The translations under genes and the position numbers were made by a program. Below the pieces are notes generated by a model, which had not been told where the DNA came from, did no database searches, and worked only from the letters and a program-made list of their open reading frames with translations. A stretch of 61,177 bases of DNA. Origin: a virus (Duplodnaviria; Caudoviricetes). Position 1 is the stretch's first letter. Every line of letters starts with the position of its first letter. Below, piece by piece: positions 12,818 through 38,800 of the stretch. The stretch is from positions 1 through 61,177 of the IMG/VR virus record IMGVR_UViG_3300025009_000108, one strand, 5' to 3'.

Positions 12818-12844
12818 TGGCCATCGATCTTCCACAAAAACATA

Positions 12845-12879: not shown

Positions 12880-13029
12880 ATGAAAATAAAACTCAAAACA
12901 CAATTGAAATGCAGGCGCTGCGGTCACAAATGGAACCCTCGCAAGACAGAAGTGCGAATTTGCCCTCGATGTAAATCGGCTTGGTGGGATACAGCTAAAA
13001 CAGGTAGTAATACAAAGGCCGTGCAATGA
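12880..13029 (+). CDS. 49-aa Zn-finger protein (CRRCGHKW...CPRCKSAWWD)
   Basis: Translated by hand; ATGA-coupled to the next gene. Confidence 0.75.
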   Translation: MKIKLKTQLKCRRCGHKWNPRKTEVRICPRCKSAWWDTAKTGSNTKAVQ

Positions 13030-13325: not shown

Positions 13326-13389
13326 CGCGCCCAACACGGGCCGTAATTGAGATGAACGCATGGCCCATGGAAACTTTAAAGGAGGAAGT

Positions 13390-13635
13390 ATGAAAGAGAT
13401 CAACAAATTAACACAGGTGCAGATGAAATTATTTATATGCACGGCATTAGACACACAAGGAAAGAGAATTCCACACACCGTCATAGTAAAAACTACTGGC
13501 CTTGGTTACGTTGAGGCGATGTTGGAACAAGAATTACTTAATTTAGATAATTATAAAATTGAGGAAATGCAGGATGAACGCGGTATTATGATTTTATTGT
13601 ATGAATCTGAGCCGTTTGTAGAATTAATATCTTAG
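13390..13635 (+). CDS. Hypothetical protein
   Basis: AAGGAGG RBS. Confidence 0.65.
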   Translation: MKEINKLTQVQMKLFICTALDTQGKRIPHTVIVKTTGLGYVEAMLEQELLNLDNYKIEEMQDERGIMILLYESEPFVELIS

Positions 13636-17834: not shown

Positions 17835-17850
17835 GTAGTTCTCCTTTTGT

Positions 17851-18060
17851 CTACTCGTTTTTAACACCAAGCATGTCAGCGACCTTTTGCAATAACTGAT
17901 CGTCAGACTTCCATGGTGTTTTCTTTACGATCTTGAAGGCAAACCACAACAGGGGAGCGCCAACAAGCGTTGAAATCACCTTGAAATCCCTTGCCATGAC
18001 GGCTACGCACTCATTTATTCGCCCATCACTAAACCAATAGATGATCTCTTTTAAGTCCAT
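17851..18060 (-). CDS. Small membrane protein, holin candidate
   Basis: One hydrophobic segment followed by KTPWKSDD; AGGAGG RBS. Confidence 0.55.
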   Translation of the reverse strand: MDLKEIIYWFSDGRINECVAVMARDFKVISTLVGAPLLWFAFKIVKKTPWKSDDQLLQKVADMLGVKNE

Positions 18061-18445: not shown

Positions 18446-18856
18446 TTACGGTGCGTTGTAAATCATAGGATCGTTTCGCGGGTCAGCAGCAAACCCGGCG
18501 AACTTGTTAAGGGCACGTTTCCATAGCCAAGCCCTCCACCGGTACATTCCATCTTGTATCCATATCGAATGGGCTATTTCGTCAGCTACTTCCCTAAGTC
18601 TGCGGTCGAGTTTTTCACGGCGCATAAGTTGGTACAATGCATCATGCACAAGGGCTCCGCGCATTGAACTTCTTGTATCAACGGTGCATCCACTTGGACC
18701 GTCCCAGGCATACCCCATCTGGATAGTCAGCAAGCCAAGCTTGGTTAACGATATAAACTCTGTGTGGATGTTTTGGGGTGGCTCGATGCCAATGCGGAGG
18801 GAGTAGGTTTCAGATAATTGGTACTTATATCCCTTGCGGTATCGGATAGCGTTCAT
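18446..18856 (-). CDS. DUF1353-like protein
   Basis: GYAWDGPS...GALVHDALYQ...AD. Confidence 0.75.
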   Translation of the reverse strand: MNAIRYRKGYKYQLSETYSLRIGIEPPQNIHTEFISLTKLGLLTIQMGYAWDGPSGCTVDTRSSMRGALVHDALYQLMRREKLDRRLREVADEIAHSIWIQDGMYRWRAWLWKRALNKFAGFAADPRNDPMIYNAP

Positions 18857-19091: not shown

Positions 19092-19298
19092 CTATCCGTC
19101 TATTTCACCACTTGCGATGGTGTCAAGATGGGCAACGCCAGCATAATACACATCGTCATAGCGAGGCGCCGTCAATGCCATGCACTTTTCCGGATGGCGC
19201 TCGATAAGCTCTCTAAGAGCGTATCGTAGCTTTATTAATCCATCGGTTCTCGACGTACTAATATAATAACGTTTGTCTGGAGTGGTTGCGTCTGTCAT
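19092..19298 (-). CDS. Hypothetical protein
   Basis: ATGA-coupled to the endolysin. Confidence 0.55.
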   Translation of the reverse strand: MTDATTPDKRYYISTSRTDGLIKLRYALRELIERHPEKCMALTAPRYDDVYYAGVAHLDTIASGEIDG

Positions 19299-19627
19299 TT
19301 GCGGCCTTTCCATTCAAAGCTGTAATGCCCGCCATCGCTGAATCTTCCACCCCATCGGCAAAGGGGGTGCCGCGTTTCCCACATTACTCCTGAAGTCGCG
19401 TGATCCTCTGTTCTTATCATCGGCTGGAAATTCTCATCATAGAACACAATATCCTGAGCAAGCCCTATGTCATGATTTGAGTTTTTCATGTGATCGCTGG
19501 TGGGGTCTTTTTCGGTAAGCCGGTCGATGCCTTCATCGAGGGCGTAATTTTGTCCGATAGAGGTCAGCCATACAAGATGATTTGCAAGTACTTTGGAGAA
19601 TAGACAGCGCGCCTCGCTAAGTTTCAT
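19295..19627 (-). CDS. M15-family peptidase endolysin
   Basis: SNH..GLAQD...WGGRF.DGGHYS. Confidence 0.88.
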   Translation of the reverse strand: MKLSEARCLFSKVLANHLVWLTSIGQNYALDEGIDRLTEKDPTSDHMKNSNHDIGLAQDIVFYDENFQPMIRTEDHATSGVMWETRHPLCRWGGRFSDGGHYSFEWKGRK

Positions 19628-20784: not shown

Positions 20785-21141
20785 TCATTCCCCGAACTGA
20801 ATAGTCAACGTTTTAGGCGCCTTTGGATAAACTATCGTTTCGGACGGCTCCGGAATTGTGTACACGACGATGTTTGAGTCCGGCGATTCGATAGTTCCCT
20901 GATATGCTCGCGCCACGAATTTAAATGTCACGCCGGCCGGAAAGTCCGGCAATGTGCATGTCGTAGTGGTTCCCTGCCAGGCAGGGGTGGTATAAACGAA
21001 CGGTTGGCTTTCAGGAGCCCAATAGATCCGATACCCTTCAGGAGCCGGAACGCTGGCGTCCCATCGAAGGGTTACGTCATTGGCCTGAACTGCGCCGCAA
21101 AGCGCGAATACCGCCAATAATGCCAAGGTAATCTTTTTCAT
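20785..21141 (-). CDS. Exported fibronectin type III domain protein
   Basis: AGGAG RBS; signal MKKITLALLAVFALCGAVQA; VTLRWDAS...GYRIYW...FVARAY...ES.DSN. Confidence 0.85.
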   Translation of the reverse strand: MKKITLALLAVFALCGAVQANDVTLRWDASVPAPEGYRIYWAPESQPFVYTTPAWQGTTTTCTLPDFPAGVTFKFVARAYQGTIESPDSNIVVYTIPEPSETIVYPKAPKTLTIQFGE

Positions 21142-21184
21142 TTCGTAATCTCCTTTTTTTATTGTAAAGTAAACTCCATACCGC

Positions 21185-22525
21185 TTATCGGTAATTACCA
21201 GTCCCATAAAATATAGTCCCGGTGCCTCCAAAAGAGCGCGCTGGAACTGGAGTTGGTGTTGGCTCTCCGTCCACATACTCGATCGCCCCACGATCCCATT
21301 CTCCATCAGCACCCCTTTGCGTTCCTGCCCAATCCTGAGTGTAGGGGCTTGACAGCGTATAACCTGCATCCATGGCTGCAACTGCTGCTGGGGTAAGCGA
21401 GAAGTCCCCGGCTGCAATATTGACGAATGGGTTTCCAGTTCCAGTGTAGGCGCTGGTGCCAGAGGTAACATTCGAGCATGACCACCACCCGTTGTGTGTA
21501 TTTGTAGGGGTAGAATTTTGAAACCCCGCGTTAGAGTTGTAGCATACATTATTCCTAAACTCTCCAGTGACGCCAGTATCGCTTCCGAGGATTCGGTTGT
21601 TGCAACTAATAAATGCATTGTTGTATATGTACGCCTGGAGAGAATAATGCACACCAGCGATAATTCCATCTCCTACCGTTATATCGTAAAACACATTGCC
21701 ATAGATATAGTATGGACCTGATGGAGCATTAAGAGCAACTATACCGCCAGTTCCAGAATCGCGACCCTCAATCCAATTATACCGAATCGTCCACCAGCGG
21801 CAATTCCCATAGTTGTTGTTAAACTCTTCTCCATGCTGGGCGGCAGAACTATATCCATTTAAAATAACATTGTATTCACTTAACCAATAGTCGTTTTTGT
21901 TGTCCGCCGCTTCATACCCAGCTGTACCCCATTGGAAGTTTGACCATCCATTTGCGAGACAATGACTGATAGTCAGATAATGAACTCCTTCGCTGGAGTT
22001 ATCAGTAGAGAAAAAGAACTTTTCTACGTCTCCACCCGGAGCTGTGCCGGTGAAGTGTGAGAAAGTAATGTCAGTTATTACCGCATTAATATTGTAGGCG
22101 GAAAGCGCTCCATTGGAAGACGCCGTAACAAAACCATAATCGGATGCGGTCTTACTCATTGAACCTTTTGCGCCGTCGATCACCCAATAGGAAGACTGCA
22201 CCACAAGACCACCGGTAAAAGACGCCTGGCCATCCCCAAGGCCAGAACTCCAATTAGACAACCCACCGTAATCAGAATCAGTCGCCTTTTTTACTGTTAT
22301 TAATGTTGTTCCTGAAACCGCAGTGCTAAAGGTTTTTCCGGCGTATGTGCCATCTACTAAATAATATGAGTTTCCGCGTGTCAGCGTGCTCGACCACGCC
22401 AGAAGATTATTATAATCTGACCCACTACCGTTACCAGTGGCCGAAGGTCCGACTGCATAGTTCGCAGCAAAACAGTTGCCTAAAAGCATCAGCATGACAA
22501 CTGTTGCGCGAATTATCGTTTTCAA
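21185..22525 (-). CDS. Exported right-handed beta-helix (pectin-lyase-like) protein
   Basis: Signal peptide; Asn-rich beta-helix pattern; DFSL...DAG...DRGAIEY C-terminus. Confidence 0.75.
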   Translation of the reverse strand: MKTIIRATVVMLMLLGNCFAANYAVGPSATGNGSGSDYNNLLAWSSTLTRGNSYYLVDGTYAGKTFSTAVSGTTLITVKKATDSDYGGLSNWSSGLGDGQASFTGGLVVQSSYWVIDGAKGSMSKTASDYGFVTASSNGALSAYNINAVITDITFSHFTGTAPGGDVEKFFFSTDNSSEGVHYLTISHCLANGWSNFQWGTAGYEAADNKNDYWLSEYNVILNGYSSAAQHGEEFNNNYGNCRWWTIRYNWIEGRDSGTGGIVALNAPSGPYYIYGNVFYDITVGDGIIAGVHYSLQAYIYNNAFISCNNRILGSDTGVTGEFRNNVCYNSNAGFQNSTPTNTHNGWWSCSNVTSGTSAYTGTGNPFVNIAAGDFSLTPAAVAAMDAGYTLSSPYTQDWAGTQRGADGEWDRGAIEYVDGEPTPTPVPARSFGGTGTIFYGTGNYR

Positions 22526-22536
22526 GTTATGCTCCC

Positions 22537-23328
22537 CTATTGTGCCTTAAAGGCCATGAACCCTGATATATATTGGTCACTTGAGTCTACTGTTGCAAAG
22601 TTCCCAGCAGGATAAGATCCGGTTGAGCTTACAATCTTGTCAAACGCACCCCAATGGACACCACTTGCTGCGCTCCTTCGATTAAAGCTACCGGCAGCGG
22701 TGTAGGTATGATCGTTATTCCAAGATAGTTCAAAAGCAACCAGCAAATCGTTGGCGTTCGTGGTAGTAATATTTTGTGCCGTTCGATTCGTTGACGAAGC
22801 CGCAATATCGTTGCAGCTCGCGCTATTGCAAGAAAATCCATCGAGCGCAGAACTGGTTGCAACTCCGCTATAGTTCATGCACTGGATGCCGTTATAAGTA
22901 CTTGCGTATCCCGGATTTGCAGCAGCGCATGTTGTCGAGCCGGCCGTAGCGCCTTCTTTATACCAATAGCTGACTATGTAATGAGCCGCTGTAACCGTAG
23001 TCACTCCAGCCTTTGTAAGCGAGTTTGCGCCACAATCTACGGTAGACCAATCTTGATTGTCGAACTCATACCGTCCTGCTTGGCATACCAAAAGATCATT
23101 TGTGGCAACATCTAAATTGGTAGATGTGGTAATGGTATTGACAGAGGTATCTACCACGTTTAAAGCGATGTTCTTGTAAGCTGGTGTTGGAGACGGAGTC
23201 GGCGTAGGCGTGCCGCCAGACACCCTAAGCATAGCAGGCTGCGAGGAAGACCACCACGCATTTGCCGTAAACGGTATAATAACCGCGCAAACCAGCAAGA
23301 AGCAAATAAGGTCTACGTATCTCTTCAT
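22537..23328 (-). CDS. Exported beta-sandwich virion-type protein
   Basis: Signal ending ANA; PTPTP linker; two NDLLV-type repeats. Confidence 0.7.
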   Translation of the reverse strand: MKRYVDLICFLLVCAVIIPFTANAWWSSSQPAMLRVSGGTPTPTPSPTPAYKNIALNVVDTSVNTITTSTNLDVATNDLLVCQAGRYEFDNQDWSTVDCGANSLTKAGVTTVTAAHYIVSYWYKEGATAGSTTCAAANPGYASTYNGIQCMNYSGVATSSALDGFSCNSASCNDIAASSTNRTAQNITTTNANDLLVAFELSWNNDHTYTAAGSFNRRSAASGVHWGAFDKIVSSTGSYPAGNFATVDSSDQYISGFMAFKAQ

Positions 23329-26300
23329 TAGTCTGCCGCCCCTCCATCAGCGCAAGCCGCAGTTTCGGAAAATACCCGCCACTCGTTTTCAGCGGTACAC
23401 ATCAAGGTAACTTTTGTTCCAGCCGTAGCGGCCATATCCAATTCATCATTTGCGCCGATACCGGTTCCGTCGAATAGATAGAATTGATCGCCAGAAGCAG
23501 GAACAACTTCAATTTTTTCTGCGTCACGCGCCCACAACGTAACGAAGTTGCCAATCGTTGCTGCGGTGCAATCCCACATGGTGACTTCATCGGCAGTCGT
23601 CATCTGAATAATACCGCCGCCATTATCAGCCTGGGTTGCTGTTCTGGCCGCAACGTAAGAATTAAACTTGGCCCCTGCTTGGAGTGCGATGTTAGCAAAA
23701 TCAATCGCCGTAACGCCGGTGCCGGTGCCCACCACTACCTTGTTGGCCGTTCCATCTGTGTCTATTGTGAGATTTTCGTTGTTCGCCCCATTGACAGAAG
23801 TAATTGTCAATACTCCGTCTGTTGCGCTCAAACGAACGTCCGCGTCATTGGGATCGGCAGCAGATTCATCAAAAGTAAGCGTTTGACTATCCGCAAAGGT
23901 AGCCCCACCGTTCAGGGCAACGGCTGGGGTGAATGCGAATGTTGCACTGGTGCCGCTGGCAAATGTCCAAAGGTTGGTTCCAGCGGTGGCGGTCATGTCT
24001 TCGCTATTCGCGAACCATGAAAAAGCGTTTGAGATATAACCCGCTTCCCCGTCAGCATTGGCAGCCGAGTTTCCCACAAAAGCCGGGGCTGTCTGGTTGC
24101 CGGTGTAGGTGTTCGCGGCGGTCGTTGACAGTGTGGCGGTTGCTGCTGGGAATGTAATTGTGGCGTCTGCTGCCTGCGAAGCGTTCGGAACAAGGGTGGT
24201 GCTATAGTCGGTGGCACCAAGTTCGTTATAAAGCACCAGAGAGCCGTCTTGTGCGTCTGCTCCGAGGGTCATGGCGTTTGTGGTCTTGTTGAACACAAAT
24301 CCAGTGTCACCGCCCAGGGCCGACCCGCCATCATTGAACTGAACCTGAGTATCAGATCCAGCAGCGGCAGCAGTAGGAGACGCCCATGTGAGCGTTCCGC
24401 TTCCATTGGTCTGAAGGTATTGGCTGGCATCACCATCGTTGGCCGGAAGGGTCAGAGTGTAGCTTGCAGCCATGGCCTGGGTTGTAATCGTTGCCGTGTT
24501 ACTACCATCATCGCTGTCTTCTGCGATGGTGAGTTGCCCCGCACCTGTCGCCCCGCGATTGATCGTGAGCGCAGCAGAAAGTGTTTTAGCTCCGCTGATG
24601 GTCTGTGCGTCCTGGACATTTACAACCGCTTTTTCGGAGCCATTGACAGAGTACTTCAGTTGATCAGATGAGTCTGTTTCAAACCATATGGCATACTCAG
24701 AAGCGCCAGGAGATCTTCCACCTGCATTGTTCGCCAAAGATATATAGGAGTCTCCTGAACCTGTAACTTGAAAAGACGTGGCATAAATAGTTGACCCTGA
24801 CTCTATTGGGCCTTCAGTGTACAAAGAGTTGGTCGTTGTTGCGTATGTCGGGGCAACGGTTGTATCGTCATCGATCCATATCGCGTGCGAATTTGCCCCG
24901 CGTAGTACGGATTGCACAGCGAGGGTATCTGTGTCGGCATTTCCAAAAGTAAGCGACCCGGTAAAGGTCTGATCGCTACCAAGGTTGGCCAAGGTTTGCG
25001 CAACGTCAACCAACGTAATAGCCCTGGCAGTGGACAAGCCCGTAATCGTAGCGTAACCGGTGCCATCAGAATCGTAGACGCGGTTGACGTGCCCAGAGGC
25101 GTCGACATCGGCAGCGGCTACCCGCTGGTGCGTTGTTCCGTCAGAGATGTCATCAATACTTCGGCTGGTGATCTGTGTAATGTTGGTCAATGTAATATCG
25201 TCAGCGACGTAAGCGTTCGCAACCGCCGTGCCCTGCCACGTCCCGGCCGAGATTGTTCCAGCGTTGGCTATGCCCCCACTGAAGGTTGTAGCCGGCGTGA
25301 TCGTCACTCCAGAGGCCCCCGAAGCACCGATTGCAACCACTTCGGCAGAAGTCACCCCGATTACCGATATGTCAGTTCCGGCAATATCCGCTTCTGACAT
25401 GATATACCCAGCGTTTGGAAGCCTGATCGACCCGGCATCGGAGGGATCGGCCCCCAAGGCTATGTGCGATGAAGCAGCAAGCGATGCCGCCCCGGTGATG
25501 TTATTCGACGCGTCAACCGATATGCCCGTTACCTGTGTCAGGTTGCCGGTACCGTTGGTCTTGATAAGTCTCAAATCAGTACCAAAACCGGCGGGGCCAA
25601 GAACGATGGAGCCCGTTTCGGCTGGGATCGTAACCGTAACATCTGATCCAGCGTTTGCGCCAGCCAAGGCGATTTCAAAATCGTTTACCGTGGCGCCTTC
25701 AAAGTAAAGCGTGTTGGCTACGTTGCCGTCAGAAGCCCCATTTGTAAAAGCAACACCGCTTGAAGCATCGCCTACCGCTGTAATGTCACCAGAACCAGCC
25801 GGATCGCCCCACTGAGGATTGGCGCCTGCGCCTTGGGTTTGAAGGAACTGCCCGTTTACACCAGGACCAAGATTTGCGATATTGGTTCCATCAAAATACA
25901 GGATGTCTCCCTGGGCCAAAGTCTCATCGGCGATGTCAGTCAAATACGCATCAAGGGGCTGATAGGTTGTCGCCGGGAGGGTGCTTAACACGCCGGCATC
26001 AGAAGACACCACCAATGCATTCGCAGCTCCAGGATAAGCCGTTGGGAATGTCCATGTCAGGTTGGCGATGGAGTTTCCGGGGGAGAGCTGTGTGTAATGG
26101 CTGTCACCGTCATAAAATCTAATGTAGGTCCCGCCGTCGCTCGAACCATCTCCGCATGCTCCGTCTACACAATCACCAACTGAAAGAACGTCACCAGAAG
26201 ACGAAGCCGCCAGAGCTGCTATAGCCTGGGCAACCCGCAAAGGAGACATTGATCGAAGAGCTGCTTCGGTTCCTGCTTCCATTTCGGCTTGGCTCGCTGC

Positions 26301-26897
26301 GGATAGGGCAGGTTCGAATGTGGCCGGGTTGGTCCAGCCACCAGTGCCATCAGCATCAACATTGAACAGGTAGTTGGCCCCGCCCGGGTACGCCGTTGGT
26401 ACTCTAATCCCCCACGATTCGGTGAAATTCGCCCCGTAAAGATCGAAGCTGAAGTTATTGGCTGGGGTATTAGAGTAGATTTTAAGGGTACCGAGAGTGG
26501 TTCCAGCAACGCCAAGCTCAAGACCGCCAGCCCCGCTGATCGTGAGACCAGCAATAGACAGGGTAGAATCCGCTATGGACCCGTCTCCGTCAGCGTCGAT
26601 GGTTGCCATCAAATAATCAATCAACGCATTTTGAGAGGCCCCATGAGATGTATCCCCGTTCATGTTCGCTGCTGTTACTGCTTCATCAACGACTTCGGCG
26701 GTAGCCCCAGAAAACTGCGTAGCGAGGATCGATGGCGACCAAACCCTTGTCCTTGTCTCGGTCCCTGCGGTCAGTTCTGCCGCAGATCCGGCAGGCGGAG
26801 GCGGTATGGCAGGAACGCCACCGGTCCTTTCGAGACGAGAGGTAACACCACAACCAAACATCAAAAAGGCAATGCCGATCAAAAACAGCTTTTTCAT
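23328..26897 (-). CDS. Long tail-fibre-like protein with lipoprotein signal
   Basis: MFGC lipobox; Gly/Thr-rich fibre repeats (YTLTLPANDGDASQYLQTNGSGTLTW, GSDTQVQFNDGG). Confidence 0.8.
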   Translation of the reverse strand: MKKLFLIGIAFLMFGCGVTSRLERTGGVPAIPPPPAGSAAELTAGTETRTRVWSPSILATQFSGATAEVVDEAVTAANMNGDTSHGASQNALIDYLMATIDADGDGSIADSTLSIAGLTISGAGGLELGVAGTTLGTLKIYSNTPANNFSFDLYGANFTESWGIRVPTAYPGGANYLFNVDADGTGGWTNPATFEPALSAASQAEMEAGTEAALRSMSPLRVAQAIAALAASSSGDVLSVGDCVDGACGDGSSDGGTYIRFYDGDSHYTQLSPGNSIANLTWTFPTAYPGAANALVVSSDAGVLSTLPATTYQPLDAYLTDIADETLAQGDILYFDGTNIANLGPGVNGQFLQTQGAGANPQWGDPAGSGDITAVGDASSGVAFTNGASDGNVANTLYFEGATVNDFEIALAGANAGSDVTVTIPAETGSIVLGPAGFGTDLRLIKTNGTGNLTQVTGISVDASNNITGAASLAASSHIALGADPSDAGSIRLPNAGYIMSEADIAGTDISVIGVTSAEVVAIGASGASGVTITPATTFSGGIANAGTISAGTWQGTAVANAYVADDITLTNITQITSRSIDDISDGTTHQRVAAADVDASGHVNRVYDSDGTGYATITGLSTARAITLVDVAQTLANLGSDQTFTGSLTFGNADTDTLAVQSVLRGANSHAIWIDDDTTVAPTYATTTNSLYTEGPIESGSTIYATSFQVTGSGDSYISLANNAGGRSPGASEYAIWFETDSSDQLKYSVNGSEKAVVNVQDAQTISGAKTLSAALTINRGATGAGQLTIAEDSDDGSNTATITTQAMAASYTLTLPANDGDASQYLQTNGSGTLTWASPTAAAAGSDTQVQFNDGGSALGGDTGFVFNKTTNAMTLGADAQDGSLVLYNELGATDYSTTLVPNASQAADATITFPAATATLSTTAANTYTGNQTAPAFVGNSAANADGEAGYISNAFSWFANSEDMTATAGTNLWTFASGTSATFAFTPAVALNGGATFADSQTLTFDESAADPNDADVRLSATDGVLTITSVNGANNENLTIDTDGTANKVVVGTGTGVTAIDFANIALQAGAKFNSYVAARTATQADNGGGIIQMTTADEVTMWDCTAATIGNFVTLWARDAEKIEVVPASGDQFYLFDGTGIGANDELDMAATAGTKVTLMCTAENEWRVFSETAACADGGAAD

Positions 26898-26905
26898 TTT
26901 GTCTC

Positions 26906-29494
26906 CTATTGGCCAGTAATGGAGCCTGCGCCATCACCATTGATTGTGGCGGAACCTCCACCGCTAATAATCCCCAAGCCTGTTACTACTGGTAGTATAT
27001 CAAATTTATAAACATCCGTCACCATGGCATTTCCGTCCGTATCTGAAGCATCAATTGACACATTGACCTCTTGCCCATCGCTGTAATCGGAAGGGTTTAA
27101 GGTTACGGTATAGCTTGCGGTTGTTCCGCTGGTGGCAAGGTCTGCCGTTCCTCCTGAGCATGTCTCGCTGGTCGGGCAATGTTTATTGCCTTCCTCGTAA
27201 AGCACGATTGATGATCTATTGACTCCACCGCTATCCGACACAACAAAGCTTATATTGGTGCTTTTTGAAACACCCGTTGCGTTCTTAGCAGGGGACCATC
27301 CGGAAACAACCGGTGGAGATACATCTCCATCCGCCGTGCCTACAAAAAAGTCGTCTATCCATATTACTTGATCAGCGGAAAGATCATTCTGTCCGCTCAG
27401 ATACGGACCAAGCACCACTTGGTTAAAAAACTGGGAAGTGTACCAGCCCTTTTTGATAACGACATTGGTTGCAGTGAAAACCGGTGAATCAAAATCGTCT
27501 ATCCACATCTGCAATATACCATCTTGATTGATGGTAGATCCGGTAAGCGTGTTCATTTTTACACGGTACATGACCTCATGCCACTGGCCGTCAGCAAAGG
27601 ATGATATAGATTGCTCCCACCATCTTACGTTTAGGTTTCCTATACTGCTGCTGCCAGAAAAATAGCACGAAACTCCCGTGCCGGCATTGGTGAAGTTCCC
27701 ATGACCTCCGTGAGCAGCTCCCTGGCTAAAGTTGGCTGTAAGGTCAGTGCCTATTTGGTCGTCGTTTTGCCCATCACCGTCCAGGTCCAGGTTTTTTGCG
27801 TCCTGAAAACTCATGGTTAGAATATTGTTATATTCATGTTCCATGTAGGCGGTAAGGTGCGTGTTGGCCAGTCCAGCCCATGCGCTATCTGCGTCAGTTT
27901 CCAGATAAACCCAATGATCCGCATATGTACCAAGACCATTGCCAACATAGTTCGTTGAGGATTTAAATTTGTACTTTACATAGATCTCAGGCGTCTGACT
28001 GAACTGCGCTCTGAGACTTCCAAGAGCACTCGCCGTTCCACTACCGTTGGTCGGCCTGTAAGCCCCTGGGGTGAAGCGGTACTCAAAGACATACCCGTTA
28101 TCGGCAACAAAGTTTGCAGCGTTCCAGGAGCCTGCGGCGTGCCCCACCACGCACTTGTAGAGCTGCCCAGAGTAAATGACATCATCCCCGATATTATAGG
28201 CGGTACTCGATGAAAATGTTGAAGCCGAACGTGTAGCCCGGTCCGTATCGATCACAAATCTCTGATTGATATCGTCATAGCATCCGGCTGCGGTCAATCC
28301 GGCTGATCCCGTTTCGGCGTGAAGGTAAAGAAGCGTGACCGGAGGAGGAGGGGCCTGGTCATTATCGGTCAATACGATGGTAGCGGTATTCGGCGTTCCA
28401 AGGTCATATGTAGCCCCGTCCGTGATGGTCAATATGGCCGCCTCATCGCCTTCGGAAAGCGAATCATCGACCGGCGTTATTGTAACCGTCGCCGTGTATT
28501 GCCCAGAAGCGATAGAGGCCGAACCGCTCACGGCTGAGTAGTCCGTCCCGCTGGTAGCCGTCCCGCTCATCGAGTAAGCAACCGTCAAAGGGCCGGCCGT
28601 GTCGCTCGTGATTGTAAATGTTCCGGTAGTCGTCCCTTCTTCCGTTGCTGAAGAATCTGTAGCGGTCACGGTAATCAATGGATCTGTGCTTGCCGACAGA
28701 GGGCCTATCCTTCCAGTTGTGCTTATCGCTATGTCGTCATAGTAAACCGTGAAGGTTTGTCCGTTATCCGCTCCGGTGAAATCTGTTTTGACGTTGGAGG
28801 GGAAAATCAAATACCTTAGATTGCCATAAGTTACTAATCCATTCTCATCTATAACCGGTGTCGGATTGTCTACACCGTCTACGTACTCCCACATTCTGAA
28901 AACACCAGAAGAGGAGATATAAACCTCCATAGCGTGCCAAGATCCACCGCCACGGCCTGCATTATCATAGAAGTCATCCCAATTATTCGTGCTTTGCCTG
29001 CCAGACGTACCATCCCTGTCATACAGCCTAAAGTCTGTAGTGTTCTGATCGAAATACCATGAATCCGTGGCAAAATAGATATAAAGAAGCTTATGGCTGC
29101 TGAACCCGAGTGAATGCGACAGGGGCATTCCGCTTGGATGGTAAAAGTACCATCTAAGATATATTTGAGGGGTTGAATCAGGTACGTCTATGAAAAACCC
29201 GGAACCTGTCGGACCTGTGCTTCCAGTTGTGTTCCCATCACCAACCTGCCAGTAAAGCCCGTTACCACCGTCTCCACCTGAATAATTCGATCCGGCAGAG
29301 ATCCCGCTATTAAGACTTGAGCATGTTCCGATCTCCCATCCGTCACAAATATCATCTCCAGAGTTCGCGGAACAATAAGCATTTGTGACATCCAGGGTCG
29401 AGCAATCGAACGTTGTTGACCATGGCAACGAGGTTATATCGGCGCTCGCCGGGACAACCATCAAAAGAAAGAATAAGCACGCAAGACGCTTCAT
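26906..29494 (-). CDS. Exported multidomain carbohydrate-binding/adhesin protein
   Basis: Signal ending ASA; two lectin/lyase-like jelly rolls, Calx-beta-like segment, CBM5/12-like YNIGDDVIYSGQLYKC, Ig-like SPAKNATGV. Confidence 0.75.
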   Translation of the reverse strand: MKRLACLFFLLMVVPASADITSLPWSTTFDCSTLDVTNAYCSANSGDDICDGWEIGTCSSLNSGISAGSNYSGGDGGNGLYWQVGDGNTTGSTGPTGSGFFIDVPDSTPQIYLRWYFYHPSGMPLSHSLGFSSHKLLYIYFATDSWYFDQNTTDFRLYDRDGTSGRQSTNNWDDFYDNAGRGGGSWHAMEVYISSSGVFRMWEYVDGVDNPTPVIDENGLVTYGNLRYLIFPSNVKTDFTGADNGQTFTVYYDDIAISTTGRIGPLSASTDPLITVTATDSSATEEGTTTGTFTITSDTAGPLTVAYSMSGTATSGTDYSAVSGSASIASGQYTATVTITPVDDSLSEGDEAAILTITDGATYDLGTPNTATIVLTDNDQAPPPPVTLLYLHAETGSAGLTAAGCYDDINQRFVIDTDRATRSASTFSSSTAYNIGDDVIYSGQLYKCVVGHAAGSWNAANFVADNGYVFEYRFTPGAYRPTNGSGTASALGSLRAQFSQTPEIYVKYKFKSSTNYVGNGLGTYADHWVYLETDADSAWAGLANTHLTAYMEHEYNNILTMSFQDAKNLDLDGDGQNDDQIGTDLTANFSQGAAHGGHGNFTNAGTGVSCYFSGSSSIGNLNVRWWEQSISSFADGQWHEVMYRVKMNTLTGSTINQDGILQMWIDDFDSPVFTATNVVIKKGWYTSQFFNQVVLGPYLSGQNDLSADQVIWIDDFFVGTADGDVSPPVVSGWSPAKNATGVSKSTNISFVVSDSGGVNRSSIVLYEEGNKHCPTSETCSGGTADLATSGTTASYTVTLNPSDYSDGQEVNVSIDASDTDGNAMVTDVYKFDILPVVTGLGIISGGGSATINGDGAGSITGQ

Positions 29495-29502
29495 TTTATC
29501 TC

Positions 29503-30561
29503 CTATGGAGCAGGGCTAACTTCGACAACTACTATGTTGGAATTACTGGATTCAGTCCAGCTAAAGCCTGTACTATAAGCCCCAACTGTAGTCGTCAAAA
29601 GTGTGGAAGTCAAAAGGTTACTTACCAGATAAGTTGTGGAAGTCTCTTTGTTGTAATTATCCTGTGATCCATTCGTAACCGCATCATTGGTAATGGCGTC
29701 CGTGTTTACGGTCGCGGCGGTTATCAACTGGCTATCGGCAACAGTGCTCGTTACCGATCTCGTAATAGAAGTTCCTCCAATTACATAGTTGTTGCTTGTG
29801 ACCCCTATGGTGGAAGACGCACCAGACCATACATGCCACGTCATACTTGCGGAAGTTGAAGATGTAGGAGTAACCCGGATTACTCCGCTTGCGGCGGAAG
29901 GAACGATGGTGTAAACATAGGTGAAAATATTTGAGGCGAACGCAGCGGAAGCCGACAATGTGAATGTTTCAGTTCCAGCGTAAGTACAGGTCGGGGCCGC
30001 GTTAACCCCGTTCGTAACCGAAAGCGTTATCAGCCTGTCGTTCCCAGATGGCGTAACGGTTCCGGATTCAAGATAGGCTGTTTGGGCCGTGGTGTGGGCT
30101 GAATCCGTAGCTACCAGAGCAAGTCCGCCAGTCGCGCTTTGAGTCGAATCATTCGTTACCTCAAAAGACGGAATCGAGGCAAGATCATATTCGGAATCGT
30201 TTTCTAATCCATCTCCCGGCTGAATATAGCTGACGGTTCCAGCTTCGGTATCATATATGGTCCTTCCGGTGATAGAATATACCAGTGTGGTAGTTCCATC
30301 GCCTGAAGAATACGAAAGACTCTCTCCGGTGTCTCCGTCCATATCGATAGACCACCCGGCGTTACCCCCCGCTCCGATTGAAACCGCTTCATCAAAAACA
30401 AATGATATCGATGTTCCAGCCGAAGGTATTGTGGCACTCAAAAGATTAGGAGGGGTCGTATCTCCTCCGGCCGCCGCGATCACCAATCCATCAGCCATTG
30501 ATCCGGAAGAAACCGAAAGCAATAGGCATACTAGCAACGATATGATTCTTAAGCTTTTCAT
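29503..30561 (-). CDS. Exported Ig-like/beta-sandwich protein
   Basis: TGATG-coupled start MKSLRIISLLVCLLL; DTTPP...FDEAV Ig-like domain. Confidence 0.75.
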   Translation of the reverse strand: MKSLRIISLLVCLLLSVSSGSMADGLVIAAAGGDTTPPNLLSATIPSAGTSISFVFDEAVSIGAGGNAGWSIDMDGDTGESLSYSSGDGTTTLVYSITGRTIYDTEAGTVSYIQPGDGLENDSEYDLASIPSFEVTNDSTQSATGGLALVATDSAHTTAQTAYLESGTVTPSGNDRLITLSVTNGVNAAPTCTYAGTETFTLSASAAFASNIFTYVYTIVPSAASGVIRVTPTSSTSASMTWHVWSGASSTIGVTSNNYVIGGTSITRSVTSTVADSQLITAATVNTDAITNDAVTNGSQDNYNKETSTTYLVSNLLTSTLLTTTVGAYSTGFSWTESSNSNIVVVEVSPAP

Positions 30562-31862
30562 CAATTCACCGTGTAATAAAGGCAAACCATGCAGTCCGTG
30601 TTTGTTCCGCTGACCGAAGTGGTGTGCCATTGAATAACATCATCAGCGTCAATGGAAGAATTGCTCAAAGTTCCATCGTCGGTCGCAGTGGTAGTCGCGG
30701 TAATATCGGTTGCCCCATCGACCCCTACGCAAGACGCCCCGGCCGAATCGCACTCATCCAAATGGCCTACAACATTGGTTGCACCGCGCTGGGTTACCCT
30801 CACCTGCCGCACCGTAATCGCATATGGGAATTGGTGGAACATATGATCGGACGCGGCGGCTATCCCCGCCCAGGTCTGGCAACGGGATTGCCAAATCGGA
30901 ATGAAAGAAGACCCTGGGCTTACGTTGCCGTATAACTGAATTCCTGAAGCCTCATCCGCACCAGTCCTGATAGCTATTTCTCCGGCTGAGTCGGTAGTGG
31001 GGCTGGCTCCGTTTGTTATCTCTACAGTAACGGCTCCCAAGTCCACCGCCCCAACACCAGCGATGCTCGAACCAGACCCGAGGGTAAGAGCAACGTTTGT
31101 CAATAAAAGCGTTCTGCCATATCCTTTGACTATGCTGGCTGGAGTTCCGTCAGCGTCTTCGACCACATCCAACCATATAGAGTTATCATCGGCCGCATCG
31201 TTGAACTTCAATGAAAGCAGTGTGGTATTGCTTGAATTGTCAGCAGCGGTATTGGTGAGTAAAAGACCGCCCCAACCGTCAGTCGAACTCGTAAAAGTCA
31301 ATGTGTAGGCCGCCATGGAAAACGACTTACTTGCAGAAGGATTTCCAAGATCGTTTAGTGCGCTCACACTCGAACAGGTATAGCAATCCCAATCTGCTGC
31401 CCCGTCTGTGGCGTCCTGGAGGGTATAAAAATTGTGATTCGTGGTATCGTACCAACGAGACCCTATGGCATATCCAAAGTCAGCATCATCATCCACGGTC
31501 GGCGCTGCTACCTGGGCGAAGGAGTCCTTGATGCATGTCGCCGTTCCAGATGACCAGTCAATATGACCAGTGCAGGCTGAAACGTCCAGGCCAAACCCGC
31601 CGATGGCAGGATCGACAAGGTTGTTGTCAACCACATCGCCGGCCATACGATCGGGGTCGAAATCGTTCGAGTTATGGTCTTCTTTGGAATTGACAGCCGT
31701 CTTTATCTCGTTCGCGTCGTCAGATGAAAACTGACCTGTAACCCCCGATGCTCCAGTGACCTTATCGGAATATGTTATATCGGTTCCGCTTCTTTCAAGG
31801 CTCCGTTGTGCCGCGCATCCTGAAAGTACGATAGTCAATATGATCAAGATAATCTTTTTCAT
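30561..31862 (-). CDS. Tail-fibre-like protein with lipoprotein signal
   Basis: LSGC lipobox; APTVDDD...GYAIGSRWYDT...DATDGAADW fibre motif. Confidence 0.78.
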   Translation of the reverse strand: MKKIILIILTIVLSGCAAQRSLERSGTDITYSDKVTGASGVTGQFSSDDANEIKTAVNSKEDHNSNDFDPDRMAGDVVDNNLVDPAIGGFGLDVSACTGHIDWSSGTATCIKDSFAQVAAPTVDDDADFGYAIGSRWYDTTNHNFYTLQDATDGAADWDCYTCSSVSALNDLGNPSASKSFSMAAYTLTFTSSTDGWGGLLLTNTAADNSSNTTLLSLKFNDAADDNSIWLDVVEDADGTPASIVKGYGRTLLLTNVALTLGSGSSIAGVGAVDLGAVTVEITNGASPTTDSAGEIAIRTGADEASGIQLYGNVSPGSSFIPIWQSRCQTWAGIAAASDHMFHQFPYAITVRQVRVTQRGATNVVGHLDECDSAGASCVGVDGATDITATTTATDDGTLSNSSIDADDVIQWHTTSVSGTNTDCMVCLYYTVN

Positions 31863-32335
31863 TATCCCACCTGCAAAAGTTTTGGTATCTTAGAAACGAT
31901 CTCACCGGTTATAAATTCAACCATCCTCCAACCATCAGTTGTTAGGCATAGGGCCTGCGAATGATCTATATCGTCTCTTGCTGCCGGCCAAATAGCAAGC
32001 TCCTGGGAGTCATTATCACCGGACTCTCTGCAATCTGCGTCAAACTCGCGTTTCATGATTGAGCATCCGTCAATAGCGAAATTATCGCAATCGAGTCGTC
32101 CGTTGTCTTTACCATCGGCGTTGCTCATGATGCTTGAAAGTGATTCTATCGGCACCCTTGATATTTTTGCCATCCAGTGGCGTGCCATTATAACGCGCCT
32201 TCGAAGGTCTTCTGGATCGGTGATAAAATATCCCGTATCTCTCAAGAGGGCTCCTGAGCTGATTTTTCGTCCGAAAAACCCGCCTTCGAACTCTTCAAGG
32301 CGTTTTCTGACTTGCGCCGATGAAATGTTCATCAC
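31862..32335 (-). CDS. Papain/transglutaminase-like cysteine protease candidate (MOA/Agglutinin C-terminal-like)
   Basis: DCDNFA...H.QAL....GWRMVE gives a possible Cys-His-Glu triad. Confidence 0.6.
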   Translation of the reverse strand: MMNISSAQVRKRLEEFEGGFFGRKISSGALLRDTGYFITDPEDLRRRVIMARHWMAKISRVPIESLSSIMSNADGKDNGRLDCDNFAIDGCSIMKREFDADCRESGDNDSQELAIWPAARDDIDHSQALCLTTDGWRMVEFITGEIVSKIPKLLQVG

Positions 32336-32796
32336 TTATCCCTTTTGGTGAACCGCAGCTTGACAGTAACGATCTTCTCATTGCCCACGTCTGCGGCTGC
32401 CTCCGTGTCTCCATCGTCGGCCAGGAATTTAACGGTCAGCGTGTTATCAACCGAAGGGAAATACCCGAGATCCTCGTGGGCGCTTTGAGCCTGTGAGACT
32501 CCAGCCGCAGAGCGCGCGCTGCCCCTGAATAACCTCCGGCTGGTAGCCTTTTCGATCACCTTAACGCGGTATGCGGTCGTAGGATAGGCGGTTGCGTCCG
32601 GGTCTGTAATGATTTCTGTCAGAGTGTACGCCTTGAGCCCCGCAAGGTTTTGCGTCGCGCCAAGGTCTTGGTCGGGAATCGAACCGTCAGTATCATCGGA
32701 AAGACACGCCAGGGAAATCAAAACTTCTCCAACCCCTCCGTGTCCAACCATTTGAATGTGGGGGCTCACGGTTACTGTTACTGAAGATCCAGCCAT
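32332..32796 (-). CDS. Putative virion structural protein
   Basis: AGGAG RBS; beta-rich, acidic; located in the tail module. Confidence 0.65.
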   Translation of the reverse strand: MAGSSVTVTVSPHIQMVGHGGVGEVLISLACLSDDTDGSIPDQDLGATQNLAGLKAYTLTEIITDPDATAYPTTAYRVKVIEKATSRRLFRGSARSAAGVSQAQSAHEDLGYFPSVDNTLTVKFLADDGDTEAAADVGNEKIVTVKLRFTKRDK

Positions 32797-32810: not shown

Positions 32811-35800
32811 TTAGTTCACTGTCTTATCGTACATTGAGTTGAATGTTTTGTATTGTTCGTCAATGATCTTTTCTATGTTTTTAACTTGTTCCTTATTCCC
32901 AGATGCTTCAAGGGCTTTCTTAACTCTTCTCAACCTGCGAAGATTTTTCTCTGTCTGAACAGCTGCACCAAACATGGCTTGCTGCGGCTTGGTCTGTGAG
33001 CTCAAATTTCTAAAATAATCAGACCCGGCATAGGCTTCAAGCTGCTCTTTGACAGTCAATATTTCTTGAATGTTTTCAAAATATGTTCTTGAATCAGACC
33101 ACTCTGCCTTTTCCCCAAAAACTCTTCGCACAAAAGGAATTTTAGATATTTGGACCTCTTCCCCCCTTAACTTTTTAAGTGGTACGGCACCCATATCTGC
33201 AAAAAACCTAGCCATGGAACCGCCCACCGTGTCCAAGATAAGATCAAGAGTAGCCGGGGAAACATCGATAGCACCCTTTTTTATATTGTCGCCCCCCGTC
33301 AGAGTGTTTAGTTGCGAGGCTACCCACACAGACGGCTTCCTGGATGACTTCCAATACCTTTGCGAATCTGGATCTGGAACCTTATCGAAAGGATTATCAC
33401 CAGGCATCAACGGGCCACCGAACCAATTCTTGTTTTCTGCTACTTGAGCGAATGGATCGGCAATAGTTGGAGCCAATGTTTGAAGGAGAGTCCCGGATTG
33501 AATTGGATTAAATGCGTTTGCAAAATTTACGGCAAGCCTGGCAGCGCCATCGATAGGTTTATAATTTTTTCTAGTGAACGCAAGCGCCGCTTCGGTTCCA
33601 ATATTCCAAAACAGGTTATATCCCCATGGAAGAGGGATTTTTAAGTATTTTCCTTTCGACCCGGGTATCATGAATATGGCATTCCGTTCTCTTACATAAT
33701 CCTCTATTTTGCTGTAATAGTCTTCATTGTCATCGTCATCTCCTCCCACCATGGCATTTAGTATGCCGAACGTGAAACCAGTCCCTACGATGCCGGCGAG
33801 CGTTTTCCTAACTCCTGAGCTTCTGCGTGCTGCCCTGATTATTCTATAAGAACCCTGTATCCCTGCATTGGCAAAAAGATACAGAGAATTTATTACAGGC
33901 CCAGCAGCTCCCTTTTTTGTGAAATCTACCGTTATGTCTGAAGCTATTTTAGCTGCCTTAATATCGGTCATCCCTTTTCCGGCGGCCAATTTGAAAACAT
34001 GCAATCTTATCCCGTTCTCAATCGCTGTGTTTGCCGCGCCAACTGTTTCGGCAAACTTTCTTGCTGTAGCCAAAATGGGTCTTTTACCTTGTAAAACCTC
34101 AACATCTTTTGATATAGATTTTTCAAGATTTGCAACACTCCCATGAATGTCGGACCAGCCTATTTTCCCACCTGCTTTTTTAAATCTATCGTATAACTTT
34201 TCGAGTTCATCGCCTTTTTGTTTTCCTTTTTCAACTCTCCATATAGCATTTACTGCTTTCCCGGCGCCAGAAAGCATGTTTTTGCCCTTAACTCCGGTAT
34301 CCTGGATATTTATATTGGCTGTCTGAAAGTCTCTTGCAAAGTTTGAAATGATAAATTCAGGGCTCCAGGTTGTATTTATTTTTGCAAGCCATTGATTAAC
34401 TTTTGCCAGGCTATTCATTATAGGCCCATAGGAAGTATCCGCAGCTTTCAATGTCCTTAACATCAACATCAAATCTCTGTTGTCGCGGTTAACTTCAAGG
34501 ATATATTGCTTACCATCCGACATGAACCTAAACTCATTATCAGAAACGTTGAAAATGTCCGGGTACATTCTAACGTTTCCGTATTGGTCTAACCTCGGTG
34601 CCTTTTTCTCTGTCTTCAATGTCCATAGCGTCGGATCTGGGTTATTCTTTACTAGGTCCCTCAACACCCTGGTTGAAGCAGCTTTTTCGGCAAGATTAAT
34701 AGCCTTTTCGTAGGATGCAACCGAATTCCCAATGATGTTGACTACGTTTCTTTTTGACCCACCGCGTACCTTGATTGGCTTTCCGGTAGGATTAAGCCCC
34801 CTTGATGCTCCGAACACAGAATCATCAAAACCTTCTCTTTGAAGAGGGACATAATACTCAAACTTTGATTTTATGGCATCATATTCCTCTTGTGGTATTA
34901 AGCCTGCGTCCATAAGCAACTCAAGGCGATTATTGTTTATGGATGCGAGATTTTTCCTAAGCCTCTCCATAACGGTGTCGCTATGGTATTTGTCAAGAAT
35001 ATCTTTAGCTTCGGCATTTGACATTCCTGATAGCTTACCGACACTATCCTGAGTTTCGTCTATACCGGTGAAAGATTCCCAATTTTTCTTTATTTGCTTT
35101 GTGGCATTTTCATCGGCAAACTGCTCAAATGATTTTTCTAGATATTTATAATTATCTTCTCCAGTTAACCCGACGCCTTCAAAAACACCTTTTGTTTTAG
35201 CAGATTTACGCTTATTTTCTGTTGCTACAGCCATTTCATCACGCAATGGTTTTGTGATTTTTGCCGGCAACGCTTCAATTAAAGCGTCAAGAAATCTCTT
35301 TGCATTTTTATCCCTTGCGTCAATATTGGCTTCTTGAGCATGTTTTGCGTGAGCATATTCCTCAAGATAGGAAACGTTCTTACCAGACTTAGCGATAGCT
35401 TCAATCAATGGCTTAACTTCATTCGCCCATAGCTCCTTTACCCTATTTGCGGTAACTTTCGGGCGTTGCGTTTCTTTTAGGAATACGTCTATGCTTTCAG
35501 TAACTTTTGATAGTTTTGCCTGAACCTCTTGAATCGGATGGTTTTTATCTACAATCCAATACATGAAATCATTGAGAGGCCGGTTTATCGCTGATCTAAT
35601 TTCTTCAAACCTACCATTTAACCGTTTTGATTCAGTTCGCTCTTTTTTATCTAAACCGAACTCCTTATCTGCCTTCTCCTTCCCAAAATACTTAACCGCG
35701 AAGTCGTAGGCTTCTTGGTCGAACTCCGTATTATCGCTGTCTTCCTTTCTTCTGCTGAAGGATGGTTCAGTTCCAGCCTTACCAGGTTGGCTTGTGTGTG

Positions 35801-38800
35801 TAGGGATTGGATCGTCGTTTTGATCGACATTCCAGTATTTTACCTCAAAATTCCCGACATAAGTTTCTTCTGGGTCTCCAAGCAATTTTGTTAATTTTGA
35901 TGGCAATATCTTGTCGTAAAGATTGGATAGGTTTCCTGTTTCCCACCCCATACTTACCTGTAAAGCATCGGCATCGGGCAACATGATAGAGTTGATTTCA
36001 TTTTTGGCGGCGTAGGACACAAGATGCCTGATGGCTATATCATACATCCTGTTCCTGACTTTCGCAGGCATTTTAGCTTGCTCTTGTTTAGAAGGCGGCT
36101 GTATCTCCTCAACAAGTAAGTCGCTTCCGTCTTCTCGCCTGTGGGTCAATCTTATTCTGGCAACTGGATTTTTTATGTGTGCGTATTCTTTGTGTCCGTC
36201 AACCCAGGATGATCCTTCGGTACCATCGTAGGCGATATGAAGCTCTTTGTATGAGTTAATATCGCCCCAATCATCGCCGAACACGCTATCGCCATGTTCT
36301 GATGTACCGTCATCAATGAGGATGGTGTCTTTGTACCGTTGCCCGCCTTCTGGCTTCTCGGGTTGATTCTCCCTCCTCGAAAACTGCGCCCCCTCTCTCA
36401 TGGCGTCCAGCTTTTCACCGTTGCGCTCAAGGAGGGCTATGCGGTCGAGAACTTTTTGATCCCATATTACAAAGTTCGAAGTTCTTGATGCCGCTTTTTC
36501 AGCTTCCGCTTTCGTTACGAACTCGGCAAGCAAATTGCCTTTTCCGTCAACAACGTCCCATGTGTTCGATTCTTTGGAAAACTCTACCTTGTTGTTGCCC
36601 TTATCGCGGCTCATCTGGTCGAGGTACTTATTTCCGGGGATGCCTATTGAGGCGAGGTATTCGGAGGCGGCTTTCTGGTTTGCTACTCTGTCATTGAGCG
36701 TCTGCCTAAACCCCGTCCAACCATTGCCGGCCGGTTCGTCTTTTTCAGACAAAAATTCAGACAGGTCTGCATACAAGGCTTCGCCGCTGTCGGCGCTATC
36801 CCACGAATGGTTCAAAACCTTTTTAAGATCGCCCGATGAACTATCGTAAGCCCTGCGCAAAGCCTTCTTCACATACTCGCTCTGCTCCGACAACGGCTTA
36901 TCCCAATCCAAGAGCTTCGGGATTACGTCGTCGGGGATATCAAGTGTGTATAGCTGAGACTCACCCTTATTAAATTTAACGCTATTGTCACCTTCATTCA
37001 GTTTTTTAAGGATGGCCTTTAGGTGCGGAACGGCCTTCGGGTTGTCGTCGTTGGCCATTTCTATTCTGTCGTTTATGACTTCTCGCGCCATATCGACAAC
37101 GCCGATGACTCCTTTTTTATCAAAAGCCTCTCTTAACTTCCATTCGTTTATCAATAAATCTTCTTGTATCTGAGCCCTGACGTAATCGCGCTCAGTGGGG
37201 TTTTTGGTGAACTGGTAAGGAGAGTAATCTACCGGGTCGCCATTGTGGTATAGTGGAACTCCACCAACTGTTAGACTCCTAACTTCCGTCAGTGGCCTAA
37301 GAACTTCGGCGTATCTTCCTGCTACCGTTTTTTCCTCAGCGGAATACCACCCCCACCCATACGAAGCCGCCCCTTCCCCCGTCCCGATCTTATCCAACCG
37401 TGGCCGACCATGAGGAAAGCCTTTCTCTGGCGGCCAGATGTGCGGGGTGCCGTGATAAGCTTTGGCAAATGCCGGGGCACTCTCATCAACCAAAGATTTA
37501 GCACCGCCCTCAACCACACTCGCCCGCGCAGCATCAAGAAGGCTACGAATCTCTGCATCGGAAAACTTCAGACTGGGAGCAACCCTTCGCACAAATGAAC
37601 GGATTGCAGCAACAACCTTGTCTATCCATGTCGATTGCTCATTCTCCGAAACGTGCCTTGCAAGCCACTCATCAGCGGCTTGAATGCGCCCGTTTTGGTT
37701 GGACATATCGAAACCGTACTCTTTGCCTATTGCATCGGCTTCAGCCTTCTTGGCCGCATATACCTGCCTTAAAACCATCTTGAACTGAGGCCCCAATAGT
37801 TCCCTAAGCCCGTAATGACCGAAGGATTCGTGGAGCATGGTATTGACTGCGGACTTTTCCGAAGCAAGGTTGTCAGCTACGAGATAAACTGTTCCGTGGT
37901 AGAAGGTGCCGTCAACGATGTCATTTTCAGCGCCAATGGATTTAAGATGGTCGAGTATGTCTCCGGGCAGTTCGGATTGGGATTGAACCACTTCAACGGC
38001 CGGTGAATTTGCCCATGCTGATGTTATGCGGACTATTTTTATGGACAGGTCTTTGGCTTTTTGAGTGCCATGTTCTTGTGGATTTCGCCTGGAAAAAATA
38101 GGCTTATCAGAACTGCTCTTCAGAGACTTAGCGTCAACCACAATCCGCTTTCCACCAGGAAGCGTCACGCGGATCATGCCCTTCTTCTTGCCGCGCTTTA
38201 TCTCCTGGGTTTCAACGTATGGGCGCCATTGGTTACCGGTCCATACGCGGCCAAGTGCTTTGGGCTTTTGGGGGGCCTCTTCTGGGTTCTGTTTGACAGT
38301 GCGACCCACAGCCCTTCTCTCTCCAATATCACGCCGTTCAGGAGTTCCCCTATCCTGTGACCGCCTCTCAACCATACCGACTTCACCTGGGGCCGCTGCT
38401 TGCTCTCTTCGGCCTGATTTTTGGACGCCGTTTATTGGCTTTCTGGATTGTTCAACTTCGGGGAGTGTTCGCTTTTCCTGAACGGATGCCGGTTGCTGAA
38501 CGGGGCTTTCCCATTTGATGCCGCGTTTTTCTAATACCCTGCGGGCGGACATGGTCGCTTCATTGTCTTCGTGGCCTTGAGCGGTTCTGATAAGCTGCTC
38601 AGTTCTGGTGGGCGCTCTTAGTTCGCCAGATGCTATCTTGTCGGCGTAGTCCTTTCGGGCCGCATCTCGTTTTGTAATAAGTTCACGGTCTTTAGCAGCT
38701 TGTGCGTCTACGGTTTTAGCCCATTGCTTATCTGACTTGCCGCCTCTGTTTTTGTGTAGGGCAGATTCACCGATGTCTTGCCGCGAAAGCCCGACGCTGG

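Follow-up and report, generated by a model that had tools for sequence, protein, structure and literature searches.

A predicted MOA-type cysteine peptidase encoded beside tagged, fibre-like lipoprotein precursors in an uncultured tailed phage

The stretch of DNA analysed here (hereafter the window) is the complete IMG/VR virus record IMGVR_UViG_3300025009_000108, which spans 61,177 bases with direct terminal repeats and belongs to an uncultured tailed phage. It encodes a protein of 156 amino acids (aa; 31862..32332, minus strand, noted (-) below) which can be considered with high confidence as a peptidase of the MOA type (MOA being Marasmius oreades agglutinin, a mushroom lectin) made of the protease domain alone. 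Its gene is directly followed by that of a fibre-like protein of 433 aa (30561..31862, (-)), and a second fibre-like protein of 1189 aa is encoded further on (23328..26897, (-)). Both are taken, with fair confidence, to be exported lipoprotein precursors, and both carry a five-residue tag, LER[ST]G, shortly after a lipobox Cys. The pairing of the protease with these fibres suggests, but does not prove, that they are cleaved off their anchor, and cleavage of the fibre tether by the peptidase at or near an LE[RK][ST]G tag is the reading tentatively preferred here. Tailed-phage particles are thought to be built wholly in the cytoplasm. In this phage, tail-fibre-like proteins are found with export and lipid-anchor signals, an apparently dedicated protease and a conserved tag located where a release cut would be needed.

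Fold, catalytic residues and relatives of the 156-aa protein

The structure of the 156-aa protein was predicted by AlphaFold2 (AF2) using an alignment of its relatives, which gave a predicted local distance difference test score (pLDDT) of 90.7; the prediction from the single sequence was useless (pLDDT 36.1). When the model was compared with the PDB using Foldseek, the ten best matches were all MOA or PSL chains. Superposition with VIA-align gave PSL (3phz) at Z 14.4, with a root-mean-square deviation (rmsd) of 2.4 A over 128 aligned residues, and MOA (2iho) at Z 13.9, likewise with 2.4 A, over 127 aligned residues, the next best match being at Z 6.0. The first-pass annotation of this DNA, made from the letters alone, had proposed a resemblance to the papain-like C-terminal domain of MOA, and the predicted fold agrees with it. 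The Cys-His-Glu triad that this resemblance implied is likewise found at the level of sequence positions: in a hidden Markov model (HMM) alignment, DCDNFA falls on DCDDFA of MOA, and Cys82, His124 and Glu138 fall on MOA Cys215, His257 and Glu274. D81, D83 and N84 flank the Cys of the protease as D214, D216 and D217 do in MOA.

The phage protein therefore shares its fold, the DC(D)(D/N)FA motif, the His and the Glu with the C-terminal protease domain of MOA and PSL1a (PDB 2iho, 5mu9, 3phz and 5mua; PF18021/PF18022). However, MOA and PSL1a are fungal proteins with an N-terminal ricin-type lectin domain, whereas the protein described here is phage-encoded and lies beyond the reach of Pfam's own models. 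All of its 156 aa align to MOA residues 156-292 and the ricin-B lectin domain is absent; hence it is no chimerolectin.

The start of the protease gene was placed at ATG 32332 (156 aa) and not at GTG 32335, because all relatives begin there, with Met-Asn-(Ile/Leu). This is the one correction to the gene as first annotated: its coupling to the 433-aa gene, the DCDNFA motif with later His and Glu residues and the lack of an N-terminal hydrophobic stretch all stand. The stop of the protease gene overlaps the start of the 433-aa gene by one base (TAATG), and its start overlaps the stop of the gene upstream by one base (TGATG). No hydrophobic stretch is present in the first 30 residues, and residues 1-15 belong to the fold.

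When 1.84 billion representatives were searched exhaustively with HMMER, 10 relatives were retrieved. Their alignment (10 rows) shows D81 and C82 without exception; D83, N84 and H124 are present in 90% or more of the rows, and each of the 9 rows extending to position 138 has E or D there. PF18021 is matched by two of these relatives, at best with E 0.00099. Of the 20 proteins that the profile built from the relatives reaches, 10 (~140 aa, retrieved at E 1e-6 to 7e-4) carry PF18021 (Agglutinin_C) and/or PF18022 (Lectin_C_term); against PDB sequences, the profile reaches MOA at E 0.57. P0017 and P0025, relatives with PF18021, gave no match among cultured phages. The window protein itself has no match in Pfam or PHROG and no tblastn match among cultured phages, a word-index search returned only itself, and a scan of IMG/VR with the protease profile gave no matches. 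In the ESM Atlas, similar small proteins form several clusters, for the most part from tailed phages, and the feature neighbours there include PF06035 clusters at 0.88-0.89, under the lead level of 0.9. A complex was also predicted for two copies of the protease together with Ca and a segment of the 433-aa protein (residues 16-60); its score (0.02, compared with a mark of 0.32) bears neither way on binding.

Tag of the fibre-like precursors and linkage to the peptidase gene

The two fibre-like open reading frames (ORFs) have a common N-terminal layout, which consists of a basic Met-Lys-Lys end, 11-12 hydrophobic residues, a lipobox (LSGC or MFGC) ending in Cys16, five residues and the tag at residues 22-26. 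The tag is LERSG in the 433-aa protein (31785..31799, (-); Cys codon 31815-31817) and LERTG in the 1189-aa protein (26820..26834, (-); Cys codon 26850-26852), the translations of 31785-31817 and 26820-26852 being CAAQRSLERSG and CGVTSRLERTG, respectively. Lipoboxes were called by eye and with a regular expression, and it is from these signals that we infer lipidation. LER[ST]G occurs twice when all 61,177 bases are translated in six frames, both times at Cys+6 to Cys+10; its chance per position, calculated from the amino-acid composition of the window, is 2.3e-6. Two of the four lipobox-type ORFs of the phage contain it, the ORFs without it being those at 11980-12330 (plus strand, (+)) and 17130-17870 (-). 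Among ORFs of at least 100 aa in the window and in the loci L001-L010, LE[KRD][ST]G was found in lipoprotein tethers only.

Comparison of the 433-aa and 1189-aa proteins by BLASTP aligned residues 1-26 (E 2e-4), with a next best alignment at E 0.32; by this comparison, the two proteins are unrelated beyond residues 1-26. The first-pass annotation had noticed the same motif at the same distance from the lipobox Cys in otherwise dissimilar proteins, and this observation was confirmed. Part of the 433-aa protein (residues 108-195) matches virion or tail-fibre proteins from cultured phages, whose hosts are mostly Pseudomonas and members of the roseobacter group (13 records, E 1e-4 to 1e-2), and the 1189-aa protein has short stretches with matches in fibre-type proteins from phages of Pelagibacter and Synechococcus (11 records). 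A search of IMG/VR with a 40-residue alignment of the leader and tag produced 594 pattern matches, none of which was confirmed. A sortase-like reading of LExTG was also considered and was rejected because the anchor is N-terminal, and an acyl-enzyme would therefore carry the lipopeptide rather than the fibre.

The gene context of the protease subfamily was read in four loci (the window, L002, L003 and L005/G002), a small sample of loci related to each other. In all four, a lipobox gene comes directly after the protease gene. In L002, a metagenomic locus, the protease is 48% identical to that of the window and is followed nine bases on by a lipobox protein with C-x5-LEKTG; between the window and L002, the leader and the five spacer residues have diverged and LE[RK][ST]G is kept. 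In L003, a lipobox protein also follows the protease, and the contig ends five residues past its Cys, before the tag position. In both L002 and L003, the protease has an exported fn3-like gene inserted on its upstream side and still adjoins the lipoprotein. The fourth locus, L005/G002, is a complete 56-kb phage whose divergent protease relative (hhalign 83.7%, E 8e-6; A6 profile E 7.9e-4) keeps the Cys and the His, with Asn for Glu.

Homologues of the 1189-aa fibre provide a comparison of leaders. The conserved module of this family starts at a poly-Pro stretch directly after the tag, and the leader that precedes it is either of the lipobox type or of the signal peptidase I (SPase-I) type. The lipobox forms comprise the window protein (LERTG), P0028/P0029/L004/L006, with a six-residue spacer and LEDTG, and P0030/L005, with no tag. 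None of the SPase-I forms (P0031/L007, P0032, L009 and L010) has a tag. Within the family, the tag is thus present in 2/3 distinct lipobox N-termini, versus 0/4 SPase-I forms, and its position is that where SPase-I leaders end in the other homologues. It occurs only where a lipid anchor would otherwise stay on the fibre. No MOA-like ORF was found in the complete phages that have SPase-I fibres only (G005 and G007; best E 0.7 or worse with three profiles), nor in G006 with the A1 profile. The conservation of the export signal in function, though not in type, argues that export is real.

The N-terminal fibre module, which starts at the poly-Pro stretch, keeps 60-68% identity across the first ~170 residues in phages that share only 15-18% identity in their giant proteins. 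It has the look of an attachment module that is mobile and strongly conserved, with tips that vary. The module was noted at residues ~30-125 of the window protein (23328-26897, (-)) and in L004-L007.

Proposed release step, alternative explanations and known systems

In the preferred reading, the 433-aa fibre-like gene, translationally coupled to the peptidase gene, would give a product exported as a lipoprotein, with the tag lying between the lipidated Cys and the start of the conserved mature protein, and the peptidase would cleave the fibres from their lipid anchor at or beside the LE[RK][ST]G tag, in a release step resembling the action of LapG on surface adhesins. The fold with its triad, the layout of the export signals, the position of the tag and its confinement to two sites, and the gene linkage are observations; the lipidation, the cut, and an encounter of the cytoplasmic enzyme with its substrates and with Ca2+ only after the membrane is opened at lysis are inferences. 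A fuller reading, in which assembly takes place in two compartments and a protease sets its timing, is improbable: the exported host-recognition fibres would fold in the envelope while lipid-anchored, the peptidase, switched on by Ca2+, would reach them and cut at the tag only once the holin opens the inner membrane, and the freed fibres could then join particles or coat debris in the last seconds before the burst. A candidate endolysin without signal peptide (19295..19627, (-)), which has a weak Peptidase_M15_4 match (E 0.0017, 19.3 bits, under the cut-off of 25), fits weakly with a holin-dependent route.

Several points weigh against cleavage at the tag. The predicted leaderless enzyme and the predicted exported substrates are in separate compartments until the membrane is breached, and their mixing at lysis is an extra assumption. 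According to passages of PMC8244254 and PMC4764322, MOA works as a dimer, is Ca2+/Mn2+-dependent, cleaves a synthetic peptide after Arg (PMC8244254) and prefers Arg/Lys at P1 (PMC4764322). These properties of the family count in favour of a cut, but the P1 preference cannot be carried over to the phage protease, because the MOA S1 acid Glu210 is unconserved (it lies opposite Asn77, and MOA Trp208 is not conserved either). In LEDTG, Asp takes the place of Arg/Lys after a six-residue spacer, and the two fragments that carry it, L004 (12.6 kb) and L006 (13.8 kb), have no protease gene in the fragment including 10 kb upstream, these fragments being 23-25% complete. In L005/G002, the divergent protease lies directly before a lipobox fibre without an LE tag. 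Finally, no tagged fibre-like lipoprotein adjoins the distant MOA-like genes of 21 IMG/VR loci, so the MOA-like fold appears to have other uses in phages. These 21 loci (L011-L031) belong to diverse phages and contain small MOA-like genes (DCDNF ... HAIN ... IEPQT), several of them beside small membrane proteins.

The reading given in the first-pass annotation, in which lipid-tethered fibres are released by the protease at the shared motif upon lysis, is consequently supported in part. The fold, the triad, the motif in L002, the linkage in 4/4 loci and the tagless SPase-I homologues speak for it, and the divergent tagless pair of L005, LEDTG without protease and the 21 unlinked MOA-like loci speak against it. 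Co-occurrence of motif and protease in related phages, to which that annotation had looked, holds for LEKTG in L002 and for the lipobox neighbour in the four loci, and fails in L005 and in the L004 and L006 fragments.

The main rival explanation treats the tag as a signal for sorting, retention or docking (for surface exposure, or for binding a phage partner or a host envelope component) and gives the peptidase another substrate, which is possible, if rather doubtful. A sorting signal would also explain the confinement of the tag to lipobox forms, and the rival is consistent with an enzyme without tag in L005, with a tag variant without enzyme in the L004 and L006 fragments and with distant MOA-like phage genes in other contexts. 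However, the known Gram-negative lipoprotein sorting rules use positions +2 to +6, and the tag, at +7 to +11, lies beyond them. A sorting signal is also disfavoured by the absence of the tag from the phage's two remaining lipobox ORFs and from the small lipoproteins of G005, and by the tight linkage of the protease to the lipoprotein in 4/4 loci.

It was also considered that the peptidase could be an envelope hydrolase associated with the virion or with lysis, or an effector directed at the host and perhaps delivered with the giant polyvalent protein of the phage, the fibres not being its substrate. The protease gene comes two genes after that of this 2790-aa LPD38 polyvalent protein, the enzyme has no signal peptide, and several of its distant homologues lie beside small membrane proteins. 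Furthermore, BTLCP-type genes are frequent in environmental phages, including those of rivers, with no role assigned in the passages of PMC11283719 covered. This explanation is nevertheless unlikely, as in L002 and L003 the fn3-like exported gene parts the protease from the upstream gene while adjacency to the lipoprotein is kept, and as the closest folds are MOA and PSL, the top recognised wall-peptide hydrolase, PeiW, reaching only Z 3.8. Finally, the shared N-terminus could be a cassette of leader and tether that recombination has copied from one fibre gene to another, with the tag as a functionless passenger; the similarity of the window proteins in residues 1-26 only and the movement of fibre N-terminal modules between unrelated phages fit this explanation, but it is very unlikely given that LE[RK][ST]G was kept between the window and L002 while spacer and leader diverged, and that two unrelated fibre families have the tag in common.

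With cleavage at the tag retained as the preferred reading, known systems were compared. By analogy, LapG releasing LapA or CdrA is the closest working analogue, MOA/PSL the closest structural family and Bdellovibrio MAT the closest exported fibres. LapG cleaves at a di-alanine site, which differs from the phage tag LE[RK][ST]G. Like the phage peptidase, it is a small cysteine protease, probably belonging to the same general class of fold (4fgo; VIA-align Z 5.5, rmsd 3.5, 94 aligned residues), and it acts near the N-terminus of a large surface-tethered adhesin, thereby freeing the adhesin, which is the layout proposed for the phage fibres. However, LapG has a signal peptide and is under LapD/cyclic di-GMP regulation, whereas the phage peptidase has no signal peptide and no PF06035 (Peptidase_C93) match; the substrates of LapG are RTX adhesins which leave the cell by type-1 secretion and are retained in a pore of the outer membrane, whereas the phage fibres are predicted lipoproteins. 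Abstracts of PMC3032545, PMC4694147 and PMC4359373 describe LapG as a periplasmic Ca-dependent transglutaminase-like cysteine protease which cuts the adhesin LapA or CdrA loose from the surface of the cell; in passages of PMC8244254 its Ca site superimposes on MOA site A.

The MAT proteins of Bdellovibrio are described, in passages of PMC10769870, as phage-tail-fibre-like trimeric fibres with a signal peptide, a conserved N-terminal domain and variable tips, located outside the cytoplasm. They are cellular, whereas the window fibres are phage-encoded. The MAT fibres undergo C-terminal S74 self-cleavage, and a protease partner that would release them at the N-terminus is not mentioned in the text passages covered; neither 'lipoprotein' nor 'lipobox' occurs in the main text of PMC10769870, whereas the window fibres have a lipobox. 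In the literature on exported or lipoprotein tail fibres and on Agglutinin_C in phages, no description of a protease-tag pairing was found, supplements being outside this search.

If the proposed cut is true, it would be the first concrete, testable maturation mechanism for the exported fibre cassettes of uncultured phages, and it would provide a role for one subfamily of small MOA/BTLCP-like cysteine proteases, which are common in phage genomes. The MOA protease fold, whose subfamily was proposed to be fungal-specific (passages of PMC4764322), would then be widespread in phages.

Predicted exported cassette and other features of the genome

The protease gene is followed by seven consecutive genes (20785-31862, (-)), all with Sec-type leaders, two of the lipobox type and five of the SPase-I type. 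Besides the two lipobox genes described above, these are 29503-30561, 26906-29494 (with Calx-beta, CBM5/12 and Big_5 domains), 22537-23328, 21185-22525 and 20785-21141 (fn3), all (-). The same cassette pattern was observed in L005, L007, L008, L009 and L010. At the end of the exported fibre cassette of L008, a 108-kb phage, a lipobox ORF (12795-13398, (+)) has a body that resembles a ClpP/SppA-type serine peptidase by eye only. Cysteine counts of the exported proteins gave no clear signal, the counts in the mature proteins being often odd and their densities (0.5-3.0%) overlapping those of other proteins. Upstream of the protease lies a 154-aa gene (32332..32796, (-)) with relatives in L003 (142 aa) and L002 (partial).

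The two tagless lipobox ORFs of the phage are located elsewhere. The ORF at 11980-12330 (+) comes after NinB, in the early region, and that at 17130-17870 (-) has small membrane proteins and the candidate endolysin in its vicinity and may encode a spanin-type or exclusion lipoprotein.

Portal and major head protein genes were identified in the genome, together with a head-to-tail adaptor of the SU10 type (PF24175, E 4.2e-20), as in short-tailed phages. The polyvalent protein of 2790 aa (32811-41183, (-)) has an LPD38 domain near its C-terminus (E 6.1e-41), contains a zincin-like HExxH stretch and has zero cysteines. Terminase identity to any cultured phage is at most ~35%. Scans of IMG/VR with the 433-aa protein and with the capsid protein gave no matches, a scan with P0033 returned its own record alone, and the C-termini of the giant proteins (15-18% identity) were too diverged to serve as a handle for finding relatives. 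Contig searches of representative genomes with the protease profile and the 1189-aa fibre module gave no prophage relatives.

Hydrophobic starts were noted for two further proteins whose start codons are uncertain: a 415-aa ORF of the head-tail module (48634-49881, (-)), with an apparent cleavable signal peptide, and a 1084-aa tail protein (43830-47084, (-)), with a hydrophobic segment. The apparent leader of the adaptor gene (47084-47776) probably results from extension of the ORF, given that the SU10_adaptor match begins only at residue 35. Lastly, a PHROG match to a 'tail assembly chaperone' (phrog_1158, E 4.6e-16) was found at 18446-18856 (-), in a lysis-proximal position downstream of the fibre cassette.

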